Shown here one piece after another: positions 1 through 16,689 of a stretch of 64,000 nt of DNA. This stretch comes from Alphaproteobacteria bacterium UBA6376 (GTDB lineage: Bacteria; Pseudomonadota; Alphaproteobacteria; Rs-D84): assembly GCA_002437665.1 (NCBI GenBank), contig DJQW01000001.1, forward strand, positions 392,727-456,726, in the 5' to 3' direction. Under the pieces are notes generated by a model. It had not been told where the DNA came from, ran no database searches, and was given only the letters and a program-made list of their open reading frames with translations. The position numbers and the translations under genes were made by a program. Position 1 is the first letter of the stretch. Each line of letters starts with the position of its first letter.

Positions 1-1314
1 CAATACCAGATCTAATTTCAAATGTGCCATGGTATAACTGGACATCATGATTTCAAACCCGTGCATACGTGGCAACAAATCGTTTTCAACGTAATTCGGC
101 CAAATGCCAGCATTATTCTTGAACTTATCATAAATATAGTTCACTGCGGTTGCTAAAAATGTTCCTGTGCCGGTTGCAGGGTCAAGTAATTGAACACGAT
201 GGTACTCTTTGTCTTCTGCTTTTGCGTGTCCTTGTAAATGGACTTTTTTTATGATTTTTGACTTGTCCGCCAATCCATTTGGTAATTCAAAATCCGTTTT
301 CAATATGTCGTCCATCGCACGGACTATGTAATCAACAACCGGTTGTGGGGTATAATAAACACCACGCATTTTACGCAACGTCTTGTCATATTTGCTTAAA
401 AACGTTTCATAGAAATGAACTATAGGATCGGCTGTCTTGGTTTTACGTCCAAAATCTTTCAAAATATCTGCAACATCAGTATAACTAAAAATGCTTGCCA
501 AACTGTCAACAGACCACACAATACGCTCATCAATATCATTTCCAGCAATATAATCAAACATTTTACGCAAAAACGGCACCGTCTTAGGTATCAGGGTGGC
601 GGCTTCCTGGCGGGTGAAATCATGCATAGTTTTGTCGTGCAAACGTGCAACAAACATACCGTACGCAATCGTTTGTGCATAAATGTCTGCAAATTCTTGT
701 TCTGTCATTGTGCGAATAAGAATCTTTCGGAATGATTCCAGCTGTTCATATAATGATTGGTTTTCTGATTGATCCTTTAATGCGCCTTTTATCACGTCTG
801 CAATCAAACGTGCTTTACCGGCCATCAATTCGGCCAATTTCAATGGTGATTTTATAGTTGCGGTTTTGATGACATAAAAATCTTTTATCAAATCAACCAA
901 TGTTTGATACCGTTCTGGTAACGGTGTAATTGTTTTGCCATCAAATTCAGCTATGCGCACTCTGGCGGTTTCTTTGCCTTCTTGATAAAATCTGAATTCC
1001 AAATAATCTGTATATATCAAATTTGGCAATGCATCCAAATAACGACTTTTTTGTTCTATCTCCCTGTCTGACAAATTATCTAACCGATTAATTCCGATAT
1101 CTTTTGCCTCTATAAAACCCAACACCGCATCACTGCGTCGGACCATAAAATCAGGCGCGCCAAACGTTCCACGCGCCGGTTCATTTATTGCGACTATCCC
1201 CGTTTCAATAGATTCAAGCAATCGTTTCAGGGCGGGACGATAAGAATGTTCTTTTGCGACCCCTGTTTTGAATTCTTTATCTATATCAACCAAATATTCA
1301 CAAGCACCATACAT
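1..1314 (-). CDS. Type IIG restriction-modification enzyme, N-terminal part only (PD-(D/E)xK endonuclease + gamma-class N6-adenine methyltransferase); C-terminus lies beyond window start
   Basis: Minus-strand ORF starting at ATG 1312-1314 (AAGGA RBS 8 nt upstream) and running off the window. Translation shows GAPDFMV...GFIEAKD (PD-(D/E)xK nuclease), then YYTPQPVVDYIV and LLDPATGTGTFL (MTase motifs X/I). Not in the ORF track because there is no stop inside the window. Confidence 0.6.
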   Translation of the reverse strand, partial: MYGACEYLVDIDKEFKTGVAKEHSYRPALKRLLESIETGIVAINEPARGTFGAPDFMVRRSDAVLGFIEAKDIGINRLDNLSDREIEQKSRYLDALPNLIYTDYLEFRFYQEGKETARVRIAEFDGKTITPLPERYQTLVDLIKDFYVIKTATIKSPLKLAELMAGKARLIADVIKGALKDQSENQSLYEQLESFRKILIRTMTEQEFADIYAQTIAYGMFVARLHDKTMHDFTRQEAATLIPKTVPFLRKMFDYIAGNDIDERIVWSVDSLASIFSYTDVADILKDFGRKTKTADPIVHFYETFLSKYDKTLRKMRGVYYTPQPVVDYIVRAMDDILKTDFELPNGLADKSKIIKKVHLQGHAKAEDKEYHRVQLLDPATGTGTFLATAVNYIYDKFKNNAGIWPNYVENDLLPRMHGFEIMMSSYTMAHLKLDLVL

Positions 1315-1348
1315 GAGCCAATCCTTGATGGCCCAATCTGTTTTCTTT

Positions 1349-1371
1349 ATACAGGCAATCTAAGGACCATC
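1349..1371. repeat. Left 23-bp inverted repeat (atacaggcaatctaaggaccatc) of putative invertible promoter segment
   Basis: Perfect 23/23 reverse-complement match to 1453-1475; read directly from the sequence. Confidence 0.85.
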
Positions 1372-1400
1372 TTTTTGCCATAACCATCATTTACATGCTG

Positions 1401-1429
1401 ATTCTACCAGATTTTAACCCGTTTTGCAA
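1401..1429 (-). promoter_or_regulatory. Sigma70-like promoter TTGCAA-N17-TAGAAT inside the invertible segment, currently facing the Type IIG gene
   Basis: Minus-strand -35 TTGCAA (1424-1429), 17-nt spacer, -10 TAGAAT (1401-1406). An AAGGA RBS and the ATG of the methyltransferase gene follow about 90 nt downstream. Confidence 0.55.
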
Positions 1430-1452
1430 TAAAGGCATACTCTGGACATTCT

Positions 1453-1475
1453 GATGGTCCTTAGATTGCCTGTAT
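1453..1475. repeat. Right 23-bp inverted repeat; overlaps last 5 codons plus stop of the recombinase gene
   Basis: Reverse complement is identical to 1349-1371. Confidence 0.85.
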
Positions 1476-2054
1476 GTATCGTCCCAATGTTCTCGGACTA
1501 ACATTTAGTGCCATTGCCACGCGTCTTTTTGATATCCCCATTGCCAACATTTGTTTTGCTAATTTACTCTTGCCGTCCATTTTATGATGCTTGTTTTTGC
1601 TTCCCGTCTGTCGTCCAAGTTGCATGCCCGCCAGTTTTCTACGTTGCAATGCTTCTTTGGTCCTTTGCGCAATCATGTCACGTTCTATCTCTGCGGCCAT
1701 ACCGAATGCAAAGGCCAGTACCTTACTTTGAATTGATTCATTCAAGGTATACCCATCCTTTACACTGTAAACCTGCACTCCACGCTTTAATAGAAATTCT
1801 AATATGCGAAACAGCATGAACAGGCGTCGCCCGAAACGTGACAATTCAGAAATGATTACGATGTCCCCAGGGTGGATATTTTGCATCAAAATACCAAGCG
1901 CACGCTTTTCTGGTTCACGCGTGCCGGATATGCCAGAATCTTCTATATATTTATCTATCCGCAACCCAAGCGCCCCCGCCTTGGATTCAATACCCAGTTT
2001 TTGATTCGCACAATCTTGTTTATCCGTTGAAACCCGTATATAGCCATATATCAC
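1461..2054 (-). CDS. Serine recombinase (resolvase/invertase family, Hin/Gin/Tn3-resolvase-like)
   Basis: 197 aa; N-terminal YIRVSTDKQ catalytic-serine motif, resolvase core, C-terminal HTH (ISKRRVAMALNVSPRTLGRYI). Confidence 0.85.
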   Translation of the reverse strand: MIYGYIRVSTDKQDCANQKLGIESKAGALGLRIDKYIEDSGISGTREPEKRALGILMQNIHPGDIVIISELSRFGRRLFMLFRILEFLLKRGVQVYSVKDGYTLNESIQSKVLAFAFGMAAEIERDMIAQRTKEALQRRKLAGMQLGRQTGSKNKHHKMDGKSKLAKQMLAMGISKRRVAMALNVSPRTLGRYIQAI

Positions 2055-2220
2055 AATAAACTCCTTTGGTTCGTTGTTCTATATGTCGTAGATTTCAGTT
2101 TATTCAAGTAAATAAAGATGGTTTAAGAGTGTTCAGTAACAATACTTTTTTTATCCATCGGCACTTGAAAATAGTGGACTTTTTACCTAGTTAATATAAA
2201 ACATACAAGGATTTAGAAAC

Positions 2221-3684
2221 ATGAAAACAGTTTTAGATTTAAATGCAGAAAAGGCAAAAAATTTTTTTCTGGCAGGGGAAAATTATTTTACGGGGGATTT
2301 GCCTCCATATTTTAAGTTTAATGATGTTTTACAAAAGGCAACTGCGATTTTGCAAAACAATGAGTTTAAGCAAATATATCACAGAAAACCCAATGATGTT
2401 CCAGACATCAATTATGATATAATAATCAATAAAAATGGGGAATACGATTGGCGTAAATTGACGATAATAAACCCCATATTGTATGTAAACCTTGTAAATT
2501 GTATATGCAATGCCGATGCATGGGAAAAAATATGTAATAGGTTTAAAGAATTTAGATCAGACAATCGTATTGTGTGTTCAAGTATACCGGTTGTAAAAGG
2601 TATGCGTAGACATCAAAGAGCGCAACAGATTTCAAATTGGTTGACAGAATTTGAACAAGATTCTGTGAAACAATCGTTAATTTTCTCTCATATGGTATGT
2701 ACGGATATAGTAAATTGTTATTCATCTATATATACTCATTCTATAGCTTGGGCGCTACATGGAGAAGACGTAGCAAAAAACAATAAAACAGATATGTCTT
2801 TCTTAGGAAATATTATAGATGTCGGTATAAGAGACCTTTCATATAATCAAACTAATGGGATTCCACAAGGTTCGGTATTGATGGATTTTATTGCAGAAAT
2901 TATATTAGGCTATATAGATACCTTAATAGCAGAAAAATTAAAGCGAGAGAACATAAAAGATTACAAAATATTAAGATATAGAGATGATTATAGAATATTT
3001 ACAAATAATCCAAAAGACAGTGAAATAATATTAAAAACTATAAATGATGTTTGTCAGCATATAGGTCTAAGATTAAACACACAAAAAACATTCGCCACAG
3101 ATAAAGTTATTTCAAAAGCGATAAAAAAAGATCGGTTTGATATACCCATAAGTTTCGTGCAACCAAATTATAAAATATTTTTACAATTGTATAAAATGTC
3201 TGAAGAACAGCAGAATTCAGGAGCATTACAAAGTACGTTATCGGCATTAAATAAAAAAATAAAGATAACAAAAAAAGATAAATCAGAACTATTGATAAGT
3301 ATAATTACAGACATCGCATATAATGTCCCAAAAGTTATACCACAAGCATTTACAACTATTAGCCATATTTTAAGAAAAGAACCCAGAGAAATGCAGTTGG
3401 AATACATTACAAAAATCAAGAACAAGTTCTCTAGAAAAGCCTATACAAGTTTTGTTCATATATGGTTGCAAAGATTGAGTATAAATATTGATTATCAGAT
3501 TGAATACGAACCAGATATTTGCAAGTTTGTTAAAGATAAATCTATCGAATTGTGGAATTTTAGTTGGTTAAAAAAAGAATTTTTAGACCAATTAAAACCA
3601 TATGACATAGTAAATGCATATTTGCTTAGACGTGCAAAATTACCAATTGAAAGCAAAGAAACGAATATTTTTGAATACAATTAG
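2221..3684 (+). CDS. Stand-alone reverse transcriptase of the Abi/UG (defence-associated) class, with a C-terminal alpha-helical extension
   Basis: 487 aa. RT motifs: A (MVCTDIVNCYSSI), B' (NGIPQGSVLMDFIAEIIL), C (ILRYRDDYRIF, YxDD), D (IGLRLNTQKT). No endonuclease, maturase or integrase domain is evident. Confidence 0.7.
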   Translation: MKTVLDLNAEKAKNFFLAGENYFTGDLPPYFKFNDVLQKATAILQNNEFKQIYHRKPNDVPDINYDIIINKNGEYDWRKLTIINPILYVNLVNCICNADAWEKICNRFKEFRSDNRIVCSSIPVVKGMRRHQRAQQISNWLTEFEQDSVKQSLIFSHMVCTDIVNCYSSIYTHSIAWALHGEDVAKNNKTDMSFLGNIIDVGIRDLSYNQTNGIPQGSVLMDFIAEIILGYIDTLIAEKLKRENIKDYKILRYRDDYRIFTNNPKDSEIILKTINDVCQHIGLRLNTQKTFATDKVISKAIKKDRFDIPISFVQPNYKIFLQLYKMSEEQQNSGALQSTLSALNKKIKITKKDKSELLISIITDIAYNVPKVIPQAFTTISHILRKEPREMQLEYITKIKNKFSRKAYTSFVHIWLQRLSINIDYQIEYEPDICKFVKDKSIELWNFSWLKKEFLDQLKPYDIVNAYLLRRAKLPIESKETNIFEYN

Positions 3685-4138
3685 GTTTATTTTTACTCTA
3701 TTTAGGAATATTTTGTTTGGTCGCCCACGAACATTATCCCGAACCATTTGCATAAAAAGGCAAAGCGTGCCTGATATGTTGTTGCGCGAACTTGTTTTGC
3801 TTGTTTCAGCTGATAGACAGCATTTCTTTATAAATTGATTAACGACCGATGAAAATTTGGTAAGCCCAGAATGACTATGTTACTTCAATTAAGTGCTATC
3901 CGCACATCCTTCCATCAGGAACTACCCCTGTCTTAATGCCCTGAAACATTTACAGTTAACAAAAACGTCTAATGCAGAAATTGTCAAATGAGATTTACTC
4001 CCGTCAAAAATGTATCATTTTGTTGTTTCAGATACTCTTTATTAACCTTGTACTGCTCTGGAAATTGCTGAAACTCTCTTTTCATTCGCTCTACCCCTGC
4101 CGAGCAAAGATACGCCGGAGTATTGCGCCCCTTTTTGT

Positions 4139-4692
4139 TCAAAGGTGGAATAGACGGATTAAACAGAGCCTCTTGAACATTAACATTGAACAATTCTTAA
4201 CCACATCATTTGTTAGCTGGATAAAGTAAGGAATACGAACCACTTTGTAGCCAAGCTTCATATATAATTTAGTATTTTTTTCATCCCTTAAAATGATATC
4301 AGGGTTTGTGTAATGGTGTATCCCATCAAACTCAACAATTAACTTTAATGTCTCACTTCGATAATCGGGCCGCTTCATGTATTTGTTTCTGCCTACATTT
4401 CCCAATGATTTATCATGAATCCAATCTTGCACATCAGGAAATATGATAGCCAAATACTCTTCAAACCAGTTCTGTGCAACCCGGTGTCTGCATCAAAACC
4501 CGCAACCTGTTTTTCATTAAGTTTTAGATTAAAAGCATAAGACAAAACGCATTCCCCAATATCGCCAAGCATTCTGCCATCAACAGCAAAAGTTTTATGG
4601 ACTTTTTCATGCATGCCCACTGTAGTGGCATGAAGTTTCAGATACTCTCCTAATATAAAATTGGCTTGCTCTTCTGTTACCGTTAAGCTCAT
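4139..4692 (-). pseudogene. DUF559-type (PD-(D/E)xK-like) endonuclease-domain gene, apparently frameshifted
   Basis: ORF 4139-4453 carries LIVEFDGIHHY...KLGYKVVRIPY (DUF559 signature). Overlapping upstream ORF 4393-4692 is in another frame, with a stop just before the DUF559 frame resumes. A third fragment, 3984-4193, may also belong. Confidence 0.35.
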
Positions 4693-4904
4693 TTTATCAC
4701 ATCTTTTTCAAACTACTGTAACACGCCTCCCAGCATCATACAGAGAAAGAAACACCAGCACAAACAAAAACACCAAATTTGTTAAACACACTTTACAAAA
4801 GTGTTATTTTTGACAATTATGAAAAATAAAATAACATAATGGCCGAATTGACTTTCTACCCCGAAATTGCTACCATTATCCGATGATAATAATGGGGCAA
4901 AAAC

Positions 4905-7391
4905 ATGACGTTTGATAAATTACGTGATGACAACGAGGCATATGCTCGTTTAAAAATAAATCAGAAGTTGATTGACGCGGGCTGGTTTTTAACAGATGCC
5001 CATGAACATAAACGCAATGTGAATGTTGAGCAACGGGTTGATTCTGGCTTTGCTGACTATGAAATGTTAGATTCAAACGGCTTTCCTTTGTGTGTTATTG
5101 AAGCCAAAAAACCATCAATCAACCCATTAAGTGCAAAAGAACAAGCACGCAGATATGCAACAGAACACGGTATTCGCTTTGTTATTTTATCAAACGGTGA
5201 AATTTATTATCTGTGGGACATAAAAACGGGTAATCCACAAATCATAACCCAAATACCAACCCAAGAATCTTTGGAAATGCGCTTTGGTTTTGACCCAAGC
5301 ACCAAAGATATAATGAAAGAAAACATTATTCCGGAATATGTTGCATTACAAAAGAATCCGCGCTTGTTGGATGTGCCTGAATATCAAAACCCAAAGACTC
5401 GTGGCGCTTATTGTTGGAATAATGGTTTACGAATATTGCGTGATTATCAGCTTGGTGCCGTTCATGCAGTGCAGCAAGCTATTGCAGATGGTAAAGATAG
5501 ATTCTTGATTGAAATGGCGACTGGATTGGGCAAAACATTGACGGCTGGTGCAATAATTCAAATGTTATTACGCACCGGACACGCGCATAGGGTTTTATTC
5601 CTTGTTGACCGTATTGAATTGGAACAGCAAGCGTGGAAAAACTTTAATGATTATCTGTGTGATTTTGTAACCGTAATTTATAAAGAAAATACAAAAGATT
5701 GGCATAAAGCGGATATTGTTGTTTCAACCATCCAAACATTGATGGCCAGTGATAAATACAAACATTTTTCACCAACTGATTTTGATTTTATCATATCAGA
5801 CGAAGCGCACCGTTCAATAGGTGGTAACAGCCGCGCAGTATTTGAATATTTTATCGGTTACAAATTGGGATTAACTGCGACACCACGTGATTACATCAAA
5901 AATGTGGATATTGATAAAATCAAGGTTAATGACCCAAAAGCACTTGAACGCAGATTGTTATTGGATACATATAAAACATTTGGTTGTGAAAGCGGTGAAC
6001 CAACATACAAATATACAATGATTGACGGTATTAAAAATGGTTATCTGGTTGCCCCAATGGCTATTGATGCGCGCACAGATATAACCACAGAAATGTTATC
6101 CGAAAAAGGTTATCACGCGATTGGTGTTGACGATAATGGCGAGGATGCAGAAGCCGATGTTGTTGTGAAAGATTTTGAAAAACGCTTTTTCAATGACAAT
6201 ATAAACGCGGTATTTTGCAAAGCGTTCTTGGAAAACGCAGAACGCGACCCAATCAGTGGCGAAATTGGTAAAACATTGGTATTTTGCGTTAGTCAATCAC
6301 ACGCTGCAAAGATTACCCAGATGTTGAATGAATTGGCTATGCAGGCATTCCCAGGCAAATATAATAGTGATTTTGCAGTCCAGGTTACCAGCAATGTTCA
6401 AAATGCACAGCAAATGACAAATCAGTTTATGACGGATAATAATAATCTGGGCGGTAAATCAACATTTTTGGAAGGTTATGATACATCAAAAACGCGTGTA
6501 TGTGTAACCGTTGGAATGATGACGACTGGTTATGATTGCAGCGATTTATTAAACATCGTATTTATGCGTCCGGTATTTTCACCAACTGATTTTGTGCAAA
6601 TGAAGGGGCGCGGAACCCGTAAATATACATTCAAGTATGTTGACGCAGATAAGAATGAAACCAGAAAAGACAAAGAAAGATTCAAGATGTTTGACTTCTT
6701 TGGCAACTGCGAATATTTTGAAGAAAAGTTTGATTACGGTCAGCAATTAAAATTACCTGCATTAACAAAAGGCGCTTTGGCAGGGCCAGGACAACAACGC
6801 ACATTTACAACCTTAACATCCGAAGAGATAACGAAACTGATTCAAATGGAAACGCTTAATATCCCAGACAACGGAATGCGTATAGACCGCGAATTCTGGG
6901 GCAATTTCCAAAAGACAATCAGTGCTGATACAGATATTAAAAATGCGGTTGAAAACAGCGATTGGGATTATGCTGTATCATTGGTTAAAGACAGATACGA
7001 AAATAAACCTGAATTATATCCTAATCTGGAACGGATTAAAAAAGCGACAAAATTGGACCGCCGTTTGTCCTGGCGCGAAATATTGGAACATATATTCGGC
7101 TTGCTGCCCCGATTTAAGACACGCGATGAAATGTTAGAAGATGAATGCGATAAATACATATCTATTGTTAAACCTGACGCTGAAATTGTGCCGTCTGTTA
7201 AAAATTTCATAAAATTGTATGTCACAGACAACACATTTCGTGATATAATAGAAAAGCAGGAGTATCCGCGCCTTAATGCTGAAATTCCTGGCTTTAGTAT
7301 GCAGGATTTGAAAATGATGGGCAAAGACATCCGCGAAAATTTACCTGAATACATCAAAGAAAACATAGTATTGAATAAATATATGGGGTAA
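4905..7391 (+). CDS. hsdR: Type I restriction enzyme R subunit (HsdR)
   Basis: 828 aa. N-terminal nuclease motif (DSGFADY...IEAKKP), SF2 helicase motifs MATGLGKT, DEAH, LTATP, QMKGRGTR. Confidence 0.8.
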   Translation: MTFDKLRDDNEAYARLKINQKLIDAGWFLTDAHEHKRNVNVEQRVDSGFADYEMLDSNGFPLCVIEAKKPSINPLSAKEQARRYATEHGIRFVILSNGEIYYLWDIKTGNPQIITQIPTQESLEMRFGFDPSTKDIMKENIIPEYVALQKNPRLLDVPEYQNPKTRGAYCWNNGLRILRDYQLGAVHAVQQAIADGKDRFLIEMATGLGKTLTAGAIIQMLLRTGHAHRVLFLVDRIELEQQAWKNFNDYLCDFVTVIYKENTKDWHKADIVVSTIQTLMASDKYKHFSPTDFDFIISDEAHRSIGGNSRAVFEYFIGYKLGLTATPRDYIKNVDIDKIKVNDPKALERRLLLDTYKTFGCESGEPTYKYTMIDGIKNGYLVAPMAIDARTDITTEMLSEKGYHAIGVDDNGEDAEADVVVKDFEKRFFNDNINAVFCKAFLENAERDPISGEIGKTLVFCVSQSHAAKITQMLNELAMQAFPGKYNSDFAVQVTSNVQNAQQMTNQFMTDNNNLGGKSTFLEGYDTSKTRVCVTVGMMTTGYDCSDLLNIVFMRPVFSPTDFVQMKGRGTRKYTFKYVDADKNETRKDKERFKMFDFFGNCEYFEEKFDYGQQLKLPALTKGALAGPGQQRTFTTLTSEEITKLIQMETLNIPDNGMRIDREFWGNFQKTISADTDIKNAVENSDWDYAVSLVKDRYENKPELYPNLERIKKATKLDRRLSWREILEHIFGLLPRFKTRDEMLEDECDKYISIVKPDAEIVPSVKNFIKLYVTDNTFRDIIEKQEYPRLNAEIPGFSMQDLKMMGKDIRENLPEYIKENIVLNKYMG

Positions 7392-7395
7392 CGGT

Positions 7396-9288
7396 ATGTT
7401 AGACGCCAGAACAAAACAAACCATTGATAATGCCTGCGATACATTGGTGGGTAAAGTGCCAAGTCCACAGACACAGGTTGATATTATTACAACCGCGCTA
7501 ATTTATAAGTTTATGGACGATATGGATTTGGACGGCCTTGAATTGTCGGGCAAGCGTACATTTTTTGCCGGCGATTTAGAAGCATACGCGTTTTCAACCG
7601 TTGTTAATACCAAGGGTAATCAAGAACGGATGAACCTGTATTTGACAGGGCTTGAAAAGGTGCAGACCGCCAAATCGGTGCCTGAATTATTTCGCCGTAT
7701 TTTCAAAGAAGCACTTATTCCATTTCGCGATCCTACAACATTTGCATTGTTTCTAAAAGAAATCAACGAATTATCATACGATGATTCCGAGACAATAGGT
7801 GATGCTTTTGAATACCTTTTGAATAAAATGGCGACTGCAAAAAATGCGGGGCAGTTCAGAACGCCACGTAATATTATTGATTTCATCGTTGATGTTGTGA
7901 ATCCTACTAAAAATGATACTATTTTAGATCCTGCCTGCGGAACGGCCGGATTCTTGATTTCTGCATACAAGCACATTACACAAAATCGTAAATTGACACC
8001 AGATGAATTAAAACAGATTACGAATAATGTTGTTGGAATGGATATTGATCCAACTATGGTGAAATTAAGTCTGGCCAATCTGTATTTGCATAAATTTGAA
8101 CAACCAAATATTTATGAATATGATACTTTGTCGAATGATACACGTTGGGGTGACCGATATGATGTTATTTTAGCAAACCCACCATTCATGACCCCAAAGG
8201 GCGGAATTACACCGCATAAGCGATTTGCCATAAACGCCAACCGCAGTGAAGTTTTGTTCGTCGATTATTTTATGGAGCATTTGACAATAAACGGGCGTGC
8301 TGGCTTTGTTGTCCCAGAGGGTATTATATTCCAAACCGCAAACGCATATAAAGATTTGCGTAAAATGATGTTGGATGGTTATTTATACGCGGTTGTATCT
8401 TTACCATCTGGCGTATTCAATCCGTATGCTGGGGTAAAAACATCAATACTATTCTTTGACCGCGCGTTTGCAAAACAAAACAACAATATATTATTTGTGC
8501 GTGTTGATAATGACGGCTTTTCTTTGGGCGCACAACGCACACCGATCAAACAGAACGATTTACCAGAAACGTTAAAGATTATCAATGAATACCGCGATGG
8601 TAAAGATGTATCAGGTTATGAACGCGCAATGGTTGTGTCCAAAGAACGCATAGCAGAACAAAATTATGACCTAACCGCTGCAAAGTATGTTGAGAAAGAA
8701 ATTGTTCAATGTAATTATGGAATGGTTAGATTGGGTGATGTTTGTGAATTGTTAAATGGATATGCATTCAAAAGCGAATTGTATACGGATACTGGTATTC
8801 GTGTGATGCGTATAACAAATGTGCAGAAAGGCGAAATTGTTGATGATAACCCAAAATTTTATCCGATAGAAAAACAATCCGAAATACAAAATTACATGTT
8901 ACATGAAAATGACTTGCTTGTATCTTTAACGGGTAATGTTGGGCGTGTTGGTTTGTTGCCAAAGAATTTATTACCTGCAGGATTAAATCAACGGGTTGCA
9001 TGTTTAAGACCGGATACAGATAAAATTTTGAAGGGATATTTGTTTGCTATATTAAATCAGGATAAATTTGAAAAAGATTGTATTGAATCGTCTGGCGGAA
9101 TTGCGCAAAAGAATTTAAGCACAGTATGGTTACAAAATTACACAATCCCACTTCCGTCATTGGATGTGCAACAACAGATTGTGGATGAAATTGAAAATAA
9201 GCAATCAGCAATCAACCACGCACGCAAAATCATTGAAAATCTAGAGAGAGAGAGAGAGAATATTTTGCCTGCCTTCTTGACAGTATAG
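7396..9288 (+). CDS. hsdM: Type I methyltransferase HsdM fused in frame to an HsdS half (target-recognition domain 1 + conserved coiled-coil)
   Basis: 630 aa. N6-MTase motifs (DPACGTAGFL, NPPF). Typical HsdM C-terminus (SKERIAEQNYDLTAAKYV) runs directly into an HsdS-like TRD (VRLGDVCELLNGYAFKS...). Ends just after an (AG)8 tract. Confidence 0.8.
   Translation: MLDARTKQTIDNACDTLVGKVPSPQTQVDIITTALIYKFMDDMDLDGLELSGKRTFFAGDLEAYAFSTVVNTKGNQERMNLYLTGLEKVQTAKSVPELFRRIFKEALIPFRDPTTFALFLKEINELSYDDSETIGDAFEYLLNKMATAKNAGQFRTPRNIIDFIVDVVNPTKNDTILDPACGTAGFLISAYKHITQNRKLTPDELKQITNNVVGMDIDPTMVKLSLANLYLHKFEQPNIYEYDTLSNDTRWGDRYDVILANPPFMTPKGGITPHKRFAINANRSEVLFVDYFMEHLTINGRAGFVVPEGIIFQTANAYKDLRKMMLDGYLYAVVSLPSGVFNPYAGVKTSILFFDRAFAKQNNNILFVRVDNDGFSLGAQRTPIKQNDLPETLKIINEYRDGKDVSGYERAMVVSKERIAEQNYDLTAAKYVEKEIVQCNYGMVRLGDVCELLNGYAFKSELYTDTGIRVMRITNVQKGEIVDDNPKFYPIEKQSEIQNYMLHENDLLVSLTGNVGRVGLLPKNLLPAGLNQRVACLRPDTDKILKGYLFAILNQDKFEKDCIESSGGIAQKNLSTVWLQNYTIPLPSLDVQQQIVDEIENKQSAINHARKIIENLERERENILPAFLTV
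9243..9259. repeat. (AG)8 dinucleotide simple-sequence repeat at the hsdM-S/hsdS' junction
   Basis: agagagagagagagaga read directly. It lies about 30 nt before the stop of the HsdM-S ORF (ends 9288). The downstream half-S frame is open through the tract. Confidence 0.8.
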
Positions 9289-9305
9289 ATTACAACGAAG
9301 TAAAA

Positions 9306-9800
9306 TTGGGCGATGTTGTAAAGGTTGATTGGGGAAATACCAATTTAACAAAAGCCGCATATGAAGAAAATGGCAAATATCTTGGTGTCAGTGCTGCAGG
9401 TTGTGACGGGCGTATGTCAAATTTTGAACACGATGTGGGAGTTAGTGTTTTATCTGCGATAGGTGCAAACTGTGGAAGGGTTTTTTATCCGGATGAAAAA
9501 TTTACGGCGATTAAAAATACTATAACTTTCACACCGAATAGAACAGTTGTTGTGCCAAAATATTTATTTTTTGTTATGCGGAACAATCAATTACCACAGC
9601 GTGGCGGAGCACAACCATTTATGGCGAAAGCGGATGTTGAATCATATATTATACCACTTCCATCCATTGACGACCAGAAGCGTATAGTTGCAAAATTGGA
9701 AGCAGAACAGGAAATCATTGATACAAATAAACGCTTGATTGATTTGATGCAAGAAAAAATCAACCAAGTTATAAAACGTATATATAGGTGCAATATGTAA
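9306..9800 (+). CDS. hsdS: HsdS half-subunit (target-recognition domain 2 + second conserved coiled-coil)
   Basis: 164 aa, TTG start. TRD followed by LPSIDDQKRIVAKLEAEQEIID...; its frame is open upstream through the (AG)8 tract. Confidence 0.65.
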   Translation: MGDVVKVDWGNTNLTKAAYEENGKYLGVSAAGCDGRMSNFEHDVGVSVLSAIGANCGRVFYPDEKFTAIKNTITFTPNRTVVVPKYLFFVMRNNQLPQRGGAQPFMAKADVESYIIPLPSIDDQKRIVAKLEAEQEIIDTNKRLIDLMQEKINQVIKRIYRCNM

Positions 9801-9802
9801 TT

Positions 9803-10492
9803 ATGACTGAATATTCTGATGATAATCCAGTTTATGTATTAGCGGATTTTTTGCCGCCACTTGATGAAACTGTTGCTTATCTATATAAATACAAAGATGA
9901 TTTTGCATATCATTATGAACGAGAATTTTATAATCTTGCGTTATTCTCGTATCACCAATTGTATATGGCAATATTGCATATGTATTTGTTAAAGTTCCAC
10001 AGGATGGATATAAAAATCGCTAGTGCCTGCAGGCAGAATCGTCCAATTATAAGTGTTTTATCTCCTTCTTTTTATTCTGATGTTATGGATGAAAAAGCTC
10101 GCATTGGGTTGTTTGGTCGTAGAATTTCAACCGAAATTAAAAAGAAACATGTAGAATTAGTTCAACAAAGGGATAGAATTGCGCATTTTACTGGGAATGT
10201 GTTAACCAAAGAACAAATTGACGAACATATATCAATATCGGCGGTTGTGTTAAAAGAAATTCAATCTGTTGCTTTTTATGAATTACTTTTGCATCCAACA
10301 GACCGTTTCGGGGTTCAAGTAAACGATATAGTGACAGAAATAGACAAGTCGGAAAGGTTTTCAAAAATTTCATATCTGATTCAGGACTTCTATTTATCTA
10401 AAAATGATATAGATTTTTTACAGAGATATCCTGATTTTTGTTTTTGGAATGAATATATACAGGAAAATGGTTATGAGCCAATTGAAAATTAA
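9803..10492 (+). CDS. Hypothetical protein with HEPN-like Rx4H motif (Abi-like candidate)
   Basis: About 229 aa, directly after hsdS'; RDRIAHF motif; no other recognisable domain. Confidence 0.35.
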   Translation: MTEYSDDNPVYVLADFLPPLDETVAYLYKYKDDFAYHYEREFYNLALFSYHQLYMAILHMYLLKFHRMDIKIASACRQNRPIISVLSPSFYSDVMDEKARIGLFGRRISTEIKKKHVELVQQRDRIAHFTGNVLTKEQIDEHISISAVVLKEIQSVAFYELLLHPTDRFGVQVNDIVTEIDKSERFSKISYLIQDFYLSKNDIDFLQRYPDFCFWNEYIQENGYEPIEN

Positions 10493-10613
10493 TGCCTGTA
10501 TTTATATTAAGGAACACAAGATTTAAATTTTTCTATCAAAATTTAGGAATAAAATACAAGATAATACCACATATTTCAACCACGGGTTGAAACAAGCGGC
10601 GAATTTCCGATAT

Positions 10614-11402
10614 CTACGCAACCGCATTCTCAAATCGGTCTACGATTTCAAGTAATGTGTCTGGTACATATTTTCGGGCGGTCGCCTGTATGTCGGCTGG
10701 CACGCCATAGTACGCACCGGCAACTGCGCCCGTAATGGCGGCAATCGTGTCACTGTCGCCACCGATTGAAATTGCATTGCGTATTGCGTCTTCAAAATCG
10801 GTGGATTCTATAAAGCACTGCAACGCCTGCGGGACTGTGCCTTGGCACGAGGCATCCCAACGATAACTTTTTTGCAATTCAGAAACCGGTAAGCACGCCC
10901 CATAGTAGTTTTTGATTATGTGCCGACCTATCTCGGCTTTGTCACGGCCGGTGCGTGCCAGAAATACGGCAACGGCGGTTGCCTCGGCCCCTTTGATGGC
11001 CTCGATGTGGTCATGACTGACCGATGTTACCATGTACGACAGGCGTTTAACCTCTGATAAACTGCGGCCAACCCAGCCAGCCGCCGACACGCGCATTGCG
11101 GCACCGTTGCCCCAACTGTCGTACGGTTCGCTGTCATAGCTATCCAGCCAACGTGCAAATCTGAATCCATAGCTCTTGTCCGGGAACTGTCGGCCAATCG
11201 TGCGCATAGACCGGCGCGCCAAATCCGACAGATCGCCACCATCACGCCGCCATTTCAACAGCGCATCCGCCACCGCGATGGTCATACAAGTGTCATCTGT
11301 GATAAATCCACACGGTGAAAATAATGGAAAATCCTTGGTTCTGATATTATCAAATTCATAAATAGATCCGACAATATCACCAACTATCGCACCCCACAGC
11401 AT
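10614..11402 (-). CDS. ADP-ribosylglycohydrolase family protein (DraG/ARH-like)
   Basis: 262 aa; GAIVGDIVGS, GNGAAMRVSAAG, GGDSDTIAAITGAVAGAYYG motifs. Confidence 0.8.
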   Translation of the reverse strand: MLWGAIVGDIVGSIYEFDNIRTKDFPLFSPCGFITDDTCMTIAVADALLKWRRDGGDLSDLARRSMRTIGRQFPDKSYGFRFARWLDSYDSEPYDSWGNGAAMRVSAAGWVGRSLSEVKRLSYMVTSVSHDHIEAIKGAEATAVAVFLARTGRDKAEIGRHIIKNYYGACLPVSELQKSYRWDASCQGTVPQALQCFIESTDFEDAIRNAISIGGDSDTIAAITGAVAGAYYGVPADIQATARKYVPDTLLEIVDRFENAVA

Positions 11403-11414
11403 ATTGCGCCCCCT

Positions 11415-11936
11415 TTATAACGTGCTTAAAAAATTCTCTAACTCTTTAATCTTTTGTTTTTTCCAACCGCGATTGCTTTTTTGAAACTGGGTGTAAGTGC
11501 GCAACTCTGTGACCTTGCGCAACCATGGGGCGGGGTAATAGCCGAACACCGGTACATTTCGCGCCATGCATTGACGCAATATGGCGATGTTTTCATCACG
11601 TGCGTCACGCGCGCCCTTGGGCCACGTCGCCTCTGGCGGAATACCGCGCGATGATGCCGTGTGATACGGATAGTATTCCAGAAACAGAACCTCTGAATTT
11701 TTTACACCATGTTCACGGAACGCAGCGCAAAAATCGTCCCACCAATCGTTGTATTCCTGCAAACTGTCCAAAGGCATACCGGTTGGGGCATAGCAGCCGT
11801 CTGAGCGCATTGCGTACTCTGGCAATCGTTTTGGCCACTGCGGATTGCCACCCGGATTCCATAACAATATGACAAGACGTGGATTTCTGTCGTTACCCAA
11901 ACGCACCACCGGCAAATCGTATAAATCTCTACTCAT
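11415..11936 (-). CDS. Hypothetical protein, co-oriented 12 bp upstream partner of the ADP-ribosylglycohydrolase
   Basis: 173 aa ORF (W/Y/P-rich, YYPYHTASSRG); no domain recognised. Confidence 0.4.
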   Translation of the reverse strand: MSRDLYDLPVVRLGNDRNPRLVILLWNPGGNPQWPKRLPEYAMRSDGCYAPTGMPLDSLQEYNDWWDDFCAAFREHGVKNSEVLFLEYYPYHTASSRGIPPEATWPKGARDARDENIAILRQCMARNVPVFGYYPAPWLRKVTELRTYTQFQKSNRGWKKQKIKELENFLSTL

Positions 11937-12054
11937 ATTGTATTCCCTCCACAGTCAGACCCAAAAAAATGATGTGAAATATTTATATAAAAATTCTGCA
12001 AGAACCAGACGACAAAATCAATAAAAAACACCCCGCACGGGGTATTTTTATTAC

Positions 12055-12144
12055 TGGCGGATGGGGAGGGATTCGAACCCCCGGAAGAGTTGCCCCTTCA
12101 GCGGTTTTCAAGACCGTCGCATTCGACCGCTCTGCCACCCATCC
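12055..12144 (-). tRNA. tRNA-Ser (anticodon UGA), long variable arm
   Basis: Reverse complement GGATGGGTGGCAGAGCGG...CUUGAAAACCG...GGTTCGAATCCCTCCCCATCCGCCA folds as a class II tRNA. A terminator hairpin (12029-12050) follows the 3' end. Confidence 0.85.
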
Positions 12145-12264
12145 GAAACTGTTTCATTTTATCCGCCGGTCTTTCAAACCTGCGGTTTTGTTCGCACCGC
12201 GTTGCGGGCTCACCATTCGTTCGCGCGCGGCGGCGTTCCACTTGCCTTGCTGACTCATAAGCAA

Positions 12265-12303
12265 GACCGTCGCTATTGTCCCGCTCTGCCACCCATCCGA
12301 AAC
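12265..12303 (-). repeat. Partial duplicate (about 88 percent identity) of the 5' half of tRNA-Ser
   Basis: gaccgtcgcTATTGTCCcgctctgccacccatccgaaac versus the tRNA at 12112-12148. Confidence 0.6.
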
Positions 12304-12389
12304 GGTTTCTGGTGTTTGCCGGCACTTTTGTTCAGTGCGGTCGCATTGTATATATTTTTTTTATACTTTGCAACCGTAAAATCTGAATC

Positions 12390-12656
12390 TTATTTCGTTT
12401 TTTGCGCCTGTGCGATTTTTGCCGCGCACATTTTTGTGTAATTCGGGGCTGTGCGCGCGTATTCACGCCACAGGTCGGGTATATAAAACGCATTTGCCCC
12501 GCGCGCCAGTGTCCAGTGCACAACTTTGCCATCAGGGGCTTCGCATTGCAATTTGAAACACGCCGGAAAGAACCCGTTAAAGCAACATTTATCACACGCG
12601 CCGCGTTCGGTCAGGTTCGCAACCAAAACATCGGGCAATTTATAATCCAGAATCAT
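12390..12656 (-). CDS. Small Cys-containing protein (CxxCC), start overlaps lgt stop (ATGA)
   Basis: 88 aa from ATG 12654-12656, MILDYKLPDV...; function unknown. Confidence 0.4.
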   Translation of the reverse strand: MILDYKLPDVLVANLTERGACDKCCFNGFFPACFKLQCEAPDGKVVHWTLARGANAFYIPDLWREYARTAPNYTKMCAAKIAQAQKTK

Positions 12657-13750
12657 TTGATTTGTCCTTTGGTTTTGTCCCCCCGCATTGCACAGACAAA
12701 CAGCGTCGCGCCGGCGGCAAACATTATCGCCGACAGTAACTGGCCCATGGTCAGCCCCCAATTTGTTAAAAATCCAATTTGTGCGTCCGGCATGCGGAAC
12801 TGTTCACAGAATATGCGCGCGGTGGCATACGCCATCCCCAGCATCCCGCCAATCGCACCCGCGTGCCGACGCAGTCCCGTGAAACGATACATGCAATACA
12901 TAAATATGAACAAGACGATGCCTTCGGCGGTGGCCTCGTACAATGGACTGGGGTGCAATGGGATTTGGGTATATCCGTTAAACACGACGCCCCACGGCAT
13001 ATCGGTTGGACGACCCATAACCTCCATATTTATAAAGTTCGCAATGCGTCCGAAAAAGAATCCAATCGGGGTCACCACGGCCAGCAAGTCCAATATGCGC
13101 AGCGCGATATTCATTGTGCCACCCGTGATACCGCTGTTCGGCGCGCGATGCAGTTTGCGCGCATACAAGAACGTTGCCACGATTACACCAATCAGCCCGC
13201 CATGGAAACTCATCCCGCCATTCCATACCATAAATATCTGTAACGGGTGCGCCAGAAAATAGGGCAGGTTATAGAACAAAACGTACCCCAACCGACCCCC
13301 AAGAATCACGCCAAAAATCACCGCGGTCAACAGGTCGTCCATTTGCGCTTTGTTTAATTTAATCTGGCTGTCACTGCGCCGCATCAGGTGGCGGAACAAA
13401 TAATACCCCGCAATGAATCCGGCAATATACGCCAACGCGTACCAACGAATGTCCACGCCCAGGACAGAAAACGCAACAGGTGAAATTGGGTTGACTGTTA
13501 TTGCCATCTTAAATCCCTTGAAATTACGGGGGCATTGTATTATATATTCGGTGAATAACAAGGAGAAAGTTATGATTGCAAAGAAATCATTAAACCAGGT
13601 ATCGCCCGCCGCCACACGTAACAACGGCATGGGATTGTATCTGAAACGCGTATTCGCACTGATGTTTGCTGCGATTGGCGTAACGGCATTGGCATCGTTT
13701 GTCACGATGGTAACGCCACTGATTGACATGATGTTTACAGAAACCGGCAT
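12653..13750 (-). CDS. lgt: Prolipoprotein diacylglyceryl transferase
   Basis: 365 aa polytopic membrane protein with Lgt-like N-terminus (ITVNPISPVAF...YALAYIAGFIAGYYL). Confidence 0.8.
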   Translation of the reverse strand: MPVSVNIMSISGVTIVTNDANAVTPIAANISANTRFRYNPMPLLRVAAGDTWFNDFFAIITFSLLFTEYIIQCPRNFKGFKMAITVNPISPVAFSVLGVDIRWYALAYIAGFIAGYYLFRHLMRRSDSQIKLNKAQMDDLLTAVIFGVILGGRLGYVLFYNLPYFLAHPLQIFMVWNGGMSFHGGLIGVIVATFLYARKLHRAPNSGITGGTMNIALRILDLLAVVTPIGFFFGRIANFINMEVMGRPTDMPWGVVFNGYTQIPLHPSPLYEATAEGIVLFIFMYCMYRFTGLRRHAGAIGGMLGMAYATARIFCEQFRMPDAQIGFLTNWGLTMGQLLSAIMFAAGATLFVCAMRGDKTKGQIK

Positions 13751-14303
13751 GTCGCCACTGTATTACATTTTGTTGTTTGGTGGACTGGGACTGTCCGTCT
13801 GGGCACAGGCGCGTGCATTTTCAATGTCACCGGCGGCCGCGGCGGCAATTCTGTTTATCTATGCCGCAACATTAGGTATCGTGATGACGCCTCTGTTGCT
13901 GTTCGCATTGTATAACAGCCCGATTACAATTATCGCGGCGTTTGTACTGGCGGCGGTAATGTTCGCATGCATGGCATTGTTTGGTTACAAGACCATCAAG
14001 AATCTGTCATTCTTGGGCGTGTTCTTGACCATGGGTATGATTGGTTTAATCTTGGTTGGATTGGCGTCATTCATTTGGCCGGCGATTATCGGCGGTACAT
14101 TTGGCACAGTCGTATGCCTGATTGGCGTATTGGTATTTGCATTGTTCACCGCGTATGATATGCAGAATTTGAAGTATGCATACAACGCAATGGGCGGTGA
14201 CGAACACCAGAAAAACCAGTTGGCGGTATTGGGCGCGTTGCACCTGTACATCTCGTTCGTGGCAATGTTCCAGTATTTGCTGAGTTTGTTTAACCGCGAC
14301 TAA
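13572..14303 (+). CDS. Bax inhibitor-1/YccA family membrane protein
   Basis: ATG after AGGAGA RBS; seven TM segments; C-terminal FTAYDMQNL...LLSLF pattern. Confidence 0.75.
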   Translation: MIAKKSLNQVSPAATRNNGMGLYLKRVFALMFAAIGVTALASFVTMVTPLIDMMFTETGMSPLYYILLFGGLGLSVWAQARAFSMSPAAAAAILFIYAATLGIVMTPLLLFALYNSPITIIAAFVLAAVMFACMALFGYKTIKNLSFLGVFLTMGMIGLILVGLASFIWPAIIGGTFGTVVCLIGVLVFALFTAYDMQNLKYAYNAMGGDEHQKNQLAVLGALHLYISFVAMFQYLLSLFNRD

Positions 14304-14325
14304 GAAACCAAAAAAGGAAAGAAAA

Positions 14326-14508
14326 ATGGCGTATAAAATTGATCCATCTAAATGCATTGGCTGTCACACATGCATGGGCGCGTGTCCGGTGTGTGCGATT
14401 GCAACCACATCTGATGGTAAATGTGCGATTGATCCGGCAAAGTGCATTTCGTGCGGTACGTGCGCGGCGGTGTGTCCGGTTGCGGCGATTGCCCCTGATG
14501 TACAGTAA
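14326..14508 (+). CDS. 2x[4Fe-4S] ferredoxin
   Basis: 60 aa with two CxxCxxCxxxCP motifs. Confidence 0.8.
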   Translation: MAYKIDPSKCIGCHTCMGACPVCAIATTSDGKCAIDPAKCISCGTCAAVCPVAAIAPDVQ

Positions 14509-14608
14509 TCGTGCATGGGTTATAAAACGGGGCGTTTGCCCCGTTTCTTTTTGTTGCAAATACATAAAAACAGTATAATAATTGGTGCGTTAAAAATAGA
14601 GGATTAAA

Positions 14609-15970
14609 ATGCCAGCAAAATCAGTAAATGATATCGTCGCATTGTGCAAGCGGCGCGGTTTTATTTTCACAGGTTCTGAAATCTATGGCGGTTTGGGTGG
14701 TGCGTACGATTACGGCCCATACGGCGTCGAATTGATGAAGAATATCAAGAACGCATGGTGGAACGCCATGATTTATTCCCGTAATGATATCGAGGGGCTG
14801 GATGCGGCATTGATTTCTAACCGATTGATGTGGAAATATTCAGGGCACGAGGGCAGTTTTTCTGACCCATTGGTTGAATGCAAGAAATGCGGTGCACGCA
14901 TGCGTCAGGATAAAATGAAAGACCCAACCAAGTGCGATAATTGTGGCAGCACGGATTTAACCGACCCACGTGCGTACCAGTTGATGATGGGGCTGTCCAT
15001 TGGGGCAACCGCCGATGGTGCAATCAATGCGTACCTGCGCCCAGAAACAGCGACCACAACGTATGTGAATTTCAAAAACGTATTGGACGCATGCCCACAT
15101 AAATTGCCATTTGGTATTGCCCAGATTGGCAAGGCGTTCCGTAACGAAATTTCCCCACGTGGATTTGTATTCCGTATGCGTGAATTTGAACAGGCGGAAA
15201 TGCAGTACTTTATCAATCCTGCCGATGATGCGAAATATTTCGAAGAATGGAAGAAAACGCGTATGGCATGGTGGGTAAATGTACTGGGCATTCCTGCGGA
15301 AAAATTGCGTTTCACACCGCACGAAAAATTGGCCCATTATGCCAAGGCCGCGGGTGATATCGAATACGCGTTCCCAGATGGCTTTGACGAGGTTGAGGGC
15401 ATCCACAACCGTCAGGACTTTGATTTGGGTTCTCATACCAAGGCGCAAAATGAATTTCATATTTCTGCGCATGTTATGGAAAACCACGACAGCACGGTTA
15501 AATTGGCGTATTCTGATCCCCAGACGGGTGAAAGTTTCATCCCATTCGTCATTGAAACCGCAATGGGCGTGAACCGCGCAATGTTGGCCGTTATGATAGA
15601 GGCATATACCGAAGAGCAGTTGCCAGATGGCAAGACCCGCACAGTTCTGAAATTGAAACCAAAACTTGCACCGGTCAAGGCGGCGGTTATTCCATTGGCG
15701 CGTAATGTTCCAGAATTGGTTCAGACCGCGAACGATATTGAAAATGCGTTACGTGCATTGCATATCGGCCGCATTGAATTGGAAAATTCTGGCAACATTG
15801 GTAAGAACTATCGTCGTCATGACGAAATCGGTACACCAGTTTGCATCACCGTTGATCACCAGACGATGGAAGATGGCACAGTTACCCTGCGTCACCGTGA
15901 TGACATGAGTCAGGAACGCATCGCCATCGCGGACGTACCGCGTCGTGTGACTGAGATTATAAATGCATAA
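14609..15970 (+). CDS. glyQS: Glycine--tRNA ligase, single-chain alpha2 (GlyQS) type
   Basis: 453 aa; FTGSEIYGGLGGAYDYGPYG N-terminus and class II motifs typical of the dimeric GlyRS form. Confidence 0.85.
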   Translation: MPAKSVNDIVALCKRRGFIFTGSEIYGGLGGAYDYGPYGVELMKNIKNAWWNAMIYSRNDIEGLDAALISNRLMWKYSGHEGSFSDPLVECKKCGARMRQDKMKDPTKCDNCGSTDLTDPRAYQLMMGLSIGATADGAINAYLRPETATTTYVNFKNVLDACPHKLPFGIAQIGKAFRNEISPRGFVFRMREFEQAEMQYFINPADDAKYFEEWKKTRMAWWVNVLGIPAEKLRFTPHEKLAHYAKAAGDIEYAFPDGFDEVEGIHNRQDFDLGSHTKAQNEFHISAHVMENHDSTVKLAYSDPQTGESFIPFVIETAMGVNRAMLAVMIEAYTEEQLPDGKTRTVLKLKPKLAPVKAAVIPLARNVPELVQTANDIENALRALHIGRIELENSGNIGKNYRRHDEIGTPVCITVDHQTMEDGTVTLRHRDDMSQERIAIADVPRRVTEIINA

Positions 15971-16268
15971 AATAAATAAACGGGGCGTTGCCCCGTTTTT
16001 TTTACCCAAACGAATCGGTTGGGAATAAAATGTCAAAGACATTTGTCCCAAAAACGCAGGACAAATGTCGTATCGAAAAATTTTTTACTAAGAAAAAAAT
16101 CGTCGTTTTTTACTGTTTTTGTGAATTTTTCCCAGATTTCTGCGCCTTTTGCTGCGTGCCCCGATTTATACATGATCACATATAAAAGGAGTATAGCCGG
16201 AAAAATCCCCACTGGGTTTATATTGTGAATGTAGACAAAACAACAAACAGACAAAGGTGAAAAAACAA

Positions 16269-16511: not shown

Positions 16512-16689
16512 AATCTGTAAATAATACCGCGCGCGAATGCACGCGGTATTACATTTTTGTAAAATAAAAATATTTTCAAAAATCTGTCTTTTGTGCTGTT
16601 TTTCGATTAAAGAATCGTGTATAATAAGAATAAACAATCATATTCACGTATTTTTGTTGTCTTTTTTTCTTTAATCAAAAGGTATAGCG

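Follow-up and report, generated by a model that had tools for sequence, protein, structure and literature searches.

A probable defence hotspot with an invertible promoter element and a variable (AG)n repeat in an uncultured gut alphaproteobacterium

The analyzed window is a stretch of 64,000 nucleotides from Alphaproteobacteria bacterium UBA6376 (assembly GCA_002437665.1, contig DJQW01000001.1, forward-strand positions 392,727 to 456,726). Its first 12 kb contain the subject of this study, an island of predicted defence genes: a Type IIG restriction-methyltransferase beside an invertible promoter element, a serine invertase, an AbiP2-type reverse transcriptase, a decayed nuclease gene, and a Type I restriction-modification (R-M) cassette that includes a HEPN-fold protein, followed by an ADP-ribosylglycohydrolase (ARH), its partner, and a tRNA-Ser gene (Table 1). 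A gene-poor stretch at 3700-4900 precedes a tight plus-strand operon at 4905-10492; past the GC step that comes next, the two minus-strand genes (ARH and its partner) are listed with a terminator hairpin ahead of the tRNA. Gene calls were based on open reading frame (ORF) listing, tRNA search, composition, and matches to Pfam, PADLOC, NCBIfam, and PDB. All gene calls of a preliminary description (Type IIG, invertase, Abi/UG reverse transcriptase, DUF559 remnant, Type I, HEPN, and ARH with partner) held in the profile searches. Exact protein matches place the window in contig DKEE01000001.1 of GCA_002452175.1 and in over 20 further assemblies. Relatives of the GlyRS protein come from gut Alphaproteobacteria that have not been cultured and carry the label “Rickettsiales” UMGS860 or Candidatus Enterousia. 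The host is likewise an uncultured gut member of this class, related to Candidatus Enterousia. Within this group, a closed chromosome from a related species measures 958,618 bp, and the island would account for approximately 2% of a genome of this (~1 Mb) size. Comparison loci and contigs from other assemblies are given as L-numbers; L001-L010 are ten assemblies covering the locus, of which L001 carries the island beyond the window start.

Table 1. Features at the left end of the window and alleles of the (AG)n tract in the ten assemblies covering the locus (aa, amino acids)
Feature	Position or locus	Strand	Evidence or remark
Type IIG (MmeI/DrdV-like) restriction-methyltransferase, first 438 aa	1..1314	-	PADLOC REase_MTase_IIG 2.1e-132; N6_Mtase
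Invertible promoter element	1349..1475	.	perfect 23-bp inverted repeats 1349-1371 / 1453-1475, 81 bp between
Sigma-70-like promoter, TTGCAA-17-TAGAAT, extended -10 TG	1401..1429	-	consensus match; points at Type IIG start codon 1314
Small serine recombinase (DNA invertase), Mpi-like, 197 aa	1461..2054	-	Pfam Resolvase 3.1e-32 + HTH_7
AbiP2-type reverse transcriptase, 487 aa	2221..3684	+	PADLOC AbiP2 2.1e-169, residues 1-486
Decayed gene, DUF559 (Vsr-like nuclease) fragment	4139-4453	-	Pfam 1.2e-5, profile positions 47-88 of 109
Decayed gene, DUF6998 N-terminal fragment	4393-4692	-	Pfam 5.9e-10, profile positions 3-54 of 136
hsdR, Type I restriction subunit, 828 aa	4905..7391	+	Pfam HSDR_N_2, ResIII, Helicase_C; PADLOC REase_I 1.5e-60
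hsdM fused to first target-recognition domain and central helix of hsdS, 630 aa	7396..9288	+	N6_Mtase 1.7e-58, Methylase_S 2e-19
(AG)8.5 dinucleotide repeat	9243..9259	+	encodes LERERE end of central S helix, between two recognition domains
Second recognition domain and C-terminal helix of hsdS, 164-aa ORF, TTG start	9306..9800	+	Pfam Methylase_S 6.3e-15
HEPN-fold protein, 229 aa, predicted RNase	9803..10492	+	last gene of hsdR / hsdM-S cassette
Right border of variable region: ARH 3' end and terminator hairpin	10575..10761	.	L011 homology stops at 10575
ADP-ribosylglycohydrolase (ARH)	10614..11402	-	Pfam ADP_ribosyl_GH 4.8e-39; conserved right-flank gene
ARH partner, 173 aa, predicted uracil-DNA-glycosylase-superfamily fold	11415..11936	-	
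tRNA-Ser(UGA) (tga)	12055..12144	-	ARAGORN + Rfam tRNA; 3' end faces island
(AG)6AC allele	L002, L003, L006		in frame, one 800-aa M-S protein
(AG)7AC allele	L001, L004, L007, L008, L010		630 + 164 aa split
(AG)8 allele	window, L005, L009		630 + 164 aa split

The Type IIG gene runs off the window start, and its full length of 1056 aa is seen in L001 (PADLOC 6.8e-303). Its single polypeptide combines nuclease, gamma-class N6A methylase, and recognition domain (N6_Mtase and Type_ISP_C domains); the nuclease motif PD55...E69-A-K71 was read from the translation, and PDB matches comprised 7lo5, LlaGI, and LlaBIII at ~1e-32. The AbiP2 gene has the lowest guanine-plus-cytosine (GC) content of the block (0.29), matches PDB 7r08 with 3.5e-70, and keeps the catalytic YRDD motif at residue 253 intact. 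By its sequence it belongs to class 1 Abi/UG and would represent a single-gene abortive-infection system. AbiP2, Gabija, and Mrr, the latter two located left of the window, are ordinary members of their kinds with full-length profile or sequence matches. The DUF6998 and DUF559 fragments of the decayed gene (4139..4692) lie in different reading frames. An 85-aa ORF at 3972-4229 was compared with the 85-aa gene following HEPN in L144 and found to be unrelated to it.

Composition separates the block from the remainder of the window, with a GC of 36.4% at positions 1-10,574 vs 47.4% elsewhere. Island genes ranged from 0.29 to 0.44 in GC and from 0.23 to 0.42 in GC at third codon positions (GC3), compared with means of 0.494±0.027 and 0.526±0.046 in 25 background ORFs, and the GC3 of every island gene was at or below that of the lowest background ORF (minimum 0.419). 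The deviation from the flanks claimed in the preliminary description was thus confirmed by the GC/GC3 scan, while its outline of the island changed. GC rises sharply at ~10,575-10,610, and ARH (0.523) and its partner (0.490) are host-like in composition, so that the AT-rich block does not abut the tRNA-Ser as had been stated. Its end, at 10,575, comes immediately after the ARH terminator and leaves a distance of 1.5 kb to the tRNA. The genes of the proposed ~12-kb island ending with ARH are all present, but the block is cut by the window start and extends ~9.8 kb farther left, as seen in L001. Taken together, the slot in this strain amounts to ~20.4 kb (1,240 + 8,540 + 10,574 bp).

The left extension carries the rest of the Type IIG gene as well as a PDC-S01 ATPase (1e-120), GajB (1e-146), GajA (8e-156), and Mrr (3e-44), all assigned with PADLOC. 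From left to right, the cargo consists of Mrr, Gabija (GajA, GajB), a scar derived from the ARH end, PDC-S01, Type IIG, the Mpi-like invertase, AbiP2, the decayed nuclease gene, and the three-gene Type I cassette. Six systems are recognized by PADLOC, i.e., Type IIG, AbiP2, Type I, PDC-S01, GajA/GajB, and Mrr, of which the first three lie in the window, in line with the defence-profile search suggested earlier. Across Mrr-GajA-GajB, the contigs L092, L153, and L154 are 94% identical to L001. In these contigs GC climbs back to 0.45-0.54 roughly 1 kb past Mrr, where the left flank consists of genes for proteins of 575, 359, and 366 aa, a U32 peptidase, and CvpA. A 343-aa ORF of L092 (8580-9611) lacked family matches and was dismissed, being largely an artefactual extension of a small gene of lipoprotein-like type. 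The genes beyond the tRNA in L012 (HisZ-like, LD-carboxypeptidase, methyltransferases) were likewise considered as left flank and discarded, being absent from the window, L001, and L092.

The right border was defined by the conspecific L011, which is 99.6% identical to the window from position 21,005 down to 10,575, i.e., 39 bp past the ARH stop and after the hairpin. Beyond this point L011 carries different cargo: a 415-aa PDC-S11-like gene, a KAP NTPase, ApeA, and the reverse transcriptase Drt3a (DRT3). The ARH protein is identical in L011 despite this difference. L151, a sister lineage with 88-94% identity to the window, holds an empty site, in which the 575-aa gene (96% identical to that of L153) lies ~155 bp from ARH with nothing between them. 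The GC step, the L011 border, the left-flank contigs, and the empty site of L151 together show that the cargo slot is bounded by the 575-aa gene and ARH. The insertion point lies between the ARH terminator (10,575) and the conserved 575-aa gene, not at the tRNA. We therefore regard the window as very likely the right-hand half of a ~20.4-kb defence hotspot with conserved flanks.

Related species were represented by 80 species representatives, most of which keep the GlyRS-BaxI-lgt synteny, and the tRNA-Ser was located beside lgt in 14 of the 15 loci scanned for tRNAs. None of the 80 carries ARH, its partner, or an island gene beside GlyRS-BaxI-lgt; one weak ARH-like match occurred in L061, outside this arrangement. 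Synteny of the block in distant relatives, which would have spoken against horizontal acquisition, was therefore not seen among these representatives. Acquisition of the island as foreign DNA is upheld by the PADLOC systems, the deviant composition, the absence from the 80 representatives, and the different cargo of the conspecific. ARH and its partner are themselves accessory at the genus level. With its host-like composition and identical sequence in L011, ARH is a flank gene of the hotspot rather than AT-rich cargo, and it had no PADLOC match.

ARH and the 173-aa protein were also found as the outer genes of a four-gene cassette (~174-196, 137, ~228, and 262 aa) in L151 (6001-8434) and L152 (5001-7499). 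The window keeps a two-gene form, in which the 137- and ~228-aa middle genes are missing; these two genes had no matches in any library searched. In L152 the cassette lies in a phage-like element near a terminase, two reverse transcriptases, a ParB-methylase, and a large serine recombinase. The four-gene cassette may be an undescribed conflict system.

The surroundings of the slot differ from those of related species. A block of genes encoding the 575-, 359-, and 366-aa proteins, U32, tRNA-Thr, and CvpA lies just beyond GlyRS in most species compared (L015, L019, L021, L022, and others), and in the host species the 575-aa/U32/CvpA block is found past the island, on the side of the tRNA-Ser. 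Because of this difference, the ~4-kb segment from tRNA-Ser to GlyRS (window ~12,050-16,000) appears to be inverted here, with the island at the junction.

Two variable features stand out within the island. Setting aside a flipped segment, L001-L010 depart from the window sequence only within the (AG)n tract, where one base and one 2-bp indel vary. The flipped segment is the 81 bp between the 23-bp repeats upstream of the Type IIG gene, of which the right arm overlaps the invertase stop codon. The repeat has no other copy in the 64 kb, with none expected by chance. The sigma-70-like site lies within the 81 bp, is unique within 1200-2300, and in the window has what would be the ON orientation. 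Nine of the ten assemblies span the whole invertible element: the segment is inverted in L002, L003, and L006 and window-like in L001, L004, L005, and L008-L010. The invertible promoter proposed in the preliminary description thus gained perfect repeats and both orientations in natural assemblies. The L007 contig breaks off precisely at one of the repeat arms (L007 9208-9230), a pattern typical of samples that contain both orientations.

The adjacent invertase had its best NCBIfam match with the Mpi-family master DNA invertase (5.8e-69); its 231.8 bits remain under the curated cut-off of 272, which places it as a relative of the Mpi family and not as a member. PDB matches were found with Gin invertase and Tn3/gamma-delta resolvases (~1e-13). 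Judging from the arrangement, the invertase would flip the segment and thereby switch transcription of the Type IIG gene, which would be on in the orientation of the window and off in the other. Bacteroides invertible promoters, known among the gut “invertons” of Jiang et al. (2019), are reportedly flipped by an Mpi-family serine invertase. The present locus resembles them in the small serine invertase beside short inverted repeats that enclose a promoter, and in the occurrence of both orientations in natural populations. It differs in the sub-threshold invertase score, in the single target seen in 64 kb, and in the gene presumably controlled, which is here a Type IIG enzyme; its repeat sequence presumably has no relationship to the Mpi site. 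In C. jejuni, the known phase variation of a Type IIG enzyme relies on a poly-G tract (PMC4889913).

The second variable feature lies in the Type I cassette, which comprises hsdR, hsdM-S, and the HEPN gene in 5.6 kb. hsdR is closest to the EcoAI/FtnUII family (NCBIfam EcoAI 2.4e-67, below cut-off). The methylase (M) and specificity (S) subunits are encoded by a single ORF in all eight full-length homologous loci, with 800 aa in L002, L003, and L006 and 703-826 aa in L143-L145, L156, and L158. From this gene structure, the system is predicted to work like a Type I system, but as an M-S fusion variant, in which R is separate and M and S form one gene. Similarity to L143-L145 begins exactly at the hsdR start codon (4905), while the short L146 contig begins inside hsdR. 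At the other end, similarity to L144-L146 stops at the HEPN stop (10,490), and the weaker L143 match is lost within the HEPN gene. Domain swapping affects both recognition domains in L143, L145, and L146 and only the second in L144. The cassette is thus a discrete unit.

The (AG)n tract is the sole period-2 repeat in the 64 kb, with the context CT(AG)nA[C/G]AATATT. It occurs at the same position in the four divergent cassettes (L143-L146), all of them in frame. Repeat-driven switching of hsdS has been recognized by a dinucleotide tract of at least five units in the ORF between the recognition domains, combined with length polymorphism (PMC7383803); the tract described here has six to eight units, three alleles, and a fitting position. 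Slippage in the tract would switch the methylase between a full two-domain M-S protein and an M-half-S protein. In the systems of this kind described so far, NgoAV among them, full and truncated S confer different specificities, and methylation is kept rather than abolished (PMC7383803). By analogy, the half-S form should dimerize and recognize a different, symmetric site. The split hsdS of the preliminary description was found as a half gene at 9306-9800; what the description missed is that the split would be one state of an (AG)n frameshift switch. As in NgoAV of N. gonorrhoeae and the AG[n] hsdS genes of Mycoplasmataceae (PMC7383803), the tract lies between the recognition domains, its length varies among otherwise identical genomes, and the outcome is a full-length or truncated S. 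Unlike in those systems, S is here fused to M, which yields either M-S, with one M per two domains, or M-half-S, with one M per domain.

The HEPN protein at the end of the cassette had no family-level match in Pfam, PADLOC, NCBIfam, or PHROGs. Its family is rare: a word search gave 12 clusters, and a set of 1.84 billion proteins contained 31 representative clusters. R123 and H128 (RDxIAHxxG) are invariant across 26 members, whose identity to the window protein goes down to ~17%. Nine members matched HEPN_RiboL-PSP (best 1.1e-5) and four HEPN_MAE_28990. The Rx4-6H motif and the all-alpha fold that define the HEPN superfamily are both present. In six other sequence-distinct contexts (nine contigs), the HEPN gene follows an M-S fusion or S gene in 6/6. 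It comes directly after hsdR / hsdM-S in L143, L144-L146, and L156 and, in L157, directly after an S region with two domains, where this short contig ends; L158 and L159 have two extra genes between the hsdR / hsdM-S pair and HEPN. The protein therefore has a HEPN fold and is linked to Type I systems, and this linkage is conserved down to ~19-28% identity.

R-M-linked HEPN genes and the latent-RNase model of PrrC are well established (PMC3710099). In analogy to PrrC, the HEPN protein would be a latent RNase that the Type I complex keeps inactive and that serves as a back-up. It resembles PrrC in the EcoprrI Type Ic locus and the R-M-linked HEPN clades (PMC3710099) in being an Rx4H HEPN protein encoded inside a Type I operon. 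Unlike PrrC and RloC, it has only 229 aa, is devoid of an N-terminal ABC ATPase domain, and is located after the M-S fusion; unlike PrrC, it is nearest to the RiboL-PSP-HEPN profile. A bolder proposal is that hsdR, single-chain hsdM-S, and the 229-aa HEPN form a triad that constitutes a distinct, unannotated Type I-like subtype, in which the conserved (AG)n toggles M-S/M-half-S and the ATPase-less HEPN is a latent RNase released when the restriction complex is disabled. We offer this proposal tentatively and consider it rather doubtful; if true, the HEPN of the triad would be a PrrC-like back-up in a new, minimal form.

How the cargo was assembled is indicated by a 187-bp stretch that repeats the 3' end of ARH with its terminator at 92% identity. 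This copy lies between GajB and PDC-S01 (L001 16160-16345, window-equivalent -4291 to -4106) and forms a direct repeat with window 10575-10761. The 14.9-kb module from PDC-S01 to HEPN is bracketed by these repeats, and the copy is probably a scar of stepwise island assembly. L153 has a partly different cargo set and shares Mrr-Gabija only up to the end of GajB. Cargo would be exchanged between strains by recombination in or near the conserved flanks, with modules gained and replaced stepwise. This mechanism is suggested because the invertase is the sole recombinase, no tRNA repeat was found, the ARH-end scar and the sharing with L153 point to separate modules, and the Type I cassette is discrete. 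L155 (10001-14090), from another lineage, carries an 88%-identical Mrr at a different genomic place, near LysR/Ogt/NrdDG. This Mrr is followed by a 415-aa gene, equal in length to the gene beside ARH in L011 (L011 10462-11709; a match in length only), and, in a stretch that is 97% identical, by the 272-aa gene located after GajB in L153. Since both are present elsewhere in L155, at least the Mrr and 272-aa modules move between sites. The 272-aa genes of L158 and L153 are unrelated to each other.

The tRNA-Ser beside the right flank carries its own traces of change. A copy of its 5' half (anticodon stem to 5' end) is located at 12255-12309, 154 bp upstream of the intact gene, and the last 29 bp of the copy are 97% identical. 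A GT6 glycosyltransferase gene lies between tRNA and lgt in L012 (6512-7776), L017 (717-1960), and L151 and is absent here. Given the copy and the missing GT6 gene, the 5' side of the tRNA was rearranged as well. An Rfam scan of 1-13,000 returned the tRNA only.

Three other explanations were weighed against a hotspot with exchanged cargo. A classical genomic island, inserted into the 3' end of tRNA-Ser by a tyrosine or large serine integrase that would lie with the far att site upstream of the window, would account for the position of the block on the 3' side of the tRNA and for the end of similarity to L012 (91%), L014, L017, and L019, four other species, at 12,048-12,051, i.e., 4-7 bp from the tRNA 3' end; the 5'-half remnant would fit a past rearrangement at this gene. 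Between species, foreign DNA would accordingly start at 12048-12051, but the within-species border lies at 10575, away from the tRNA, and the intervening 1.5 kb are host-like in GC. The upstream repeat of the tRNA-Ser 3' end and the integrase that the preliminary description expected did not appear. No copy of any tRNA-Ser 18-mer (≤2 mismatches) occurs in window 1-12054, L001, L092, or L011, and matches in the whole window were limited to the tRNA itself, the 5'-half remnant, and a chance coding match at ~26,390. The window, the 9.8-kb extension, and the left flank contain no integrase, and the 197-aa invertase is the only recombinase across the ~20 kb. The empty site of L151 moreover retains the ARH cassette beside the tRNA. 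The tRNA-integrated island is thereby largely refuted, and we consider it highly improbable. Decay of a prophage or mobile element, in which AbiP2, R-M, and the ARH cassette would be accessory genes left after the loss of structural genes, is scarcely more plausible. AbiP2 was first described in P2-like prophages, the four-gene ARH cassette lies in a phage-like setting in L152, and a decayed nuclease gene is present, all of which this model would explain. However, the island and its flanks contain no phage structural, replication, or lysis gene, PHROG matches were limited to ARH, and the different defence modules within the same flanks elsewhere fit cargo exchange better than the decay of a single element.

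The third explanation concerns function: both switchable methyltransferases would act mainly as epigenetic regulators, i.e., as a phasevarion, with an incidental position in the island. Both switch types are among those described for phasevarions (PMC7383803, PMC4889913), and a repeat-driven change of hsdS specificity that leaves methylation in place suits such a role (PMC7383803). On the other hand, the nuclease parts are kept (PD...EAK in Type IIG and an intact hsdR), both enzymes are embedded among Abi, Gabija, and Mrr systems, and the Type I cassette carries a HEPN effector. A mainly regulatory role is therefore unlikely, albeit compatible with defence, as the two roles are not mutually exclusive. 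Several points weigh against the defence hotspot with two switches as described here. The left flank is known from 94%-identical contigs rather than from the window's own contig, PDC-S01 is a candidate system only, and erosion of a part of the island is evident from the decayed DUF559 gene. With regard to the switches, the promoter is a consensus match only, and each assembly gives only the majority state of its sample. In the full M-S fusion, two recognition domains share a single M, so that either frame state may be the active one. Furthermore, the inverted promoter and the in-frame (AG)6 co-occur in L002, L003, and L006, and the other seven loci are window-like/out-of-frame. This perfect co-variation may reflect two clones rather than frequent switching, or it could alternatively result from selection for complementary states.

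The locus is a typical defence hotspot built of known kinds of systems. Core-flanked defence hotspots have been described in the pan-genomes of E. coli and Pseudomonas. The present one shares with such islands and hotspots the clustering of unrelated systems, conserved flanks, differing cargo in near-identical strains, an empty site, and a deviant composition. It differs from those of E. coli and Pseudomonas in having no integrase or mobile-element backbone, in its small-genome gut alphaproteobacterial host, and in that one flank (ARH) is accessory. Modestly new are the invertible promoter on a Type IIG gene, the repeat switch inside an M-S fusion, and the unannotated HEPN partner family, which is missing from current profile sets of defence systems and could be added. 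None of these findings overturns current ideas. A gut symbiont whose closed-genome relative measures ~1 Mb reserves a slot of 20 kb for six or more defence systems, and the content of this slot is swapped between near-identical strains. Two different heritable switches would lie in one island, and because both states of each are visible in public assemblies, the locus is a convenient natural case for bet-hedging in restriction.

Elsewhere in the window, long degenerate tandem repeats with periods of 15-114 bp and a GC of 0.37 were observed at 60792-61127. They encode Lys/Pro/Ala-rich units (KPAAKKVAA-like) and resemble a histone-H1-like or other basic repeat protein. Other 1-kb pockets of low GC (~0.385-0.387 vs 0.47 background) were located at 16001-17000, 21001-22000, and 41001-42000.

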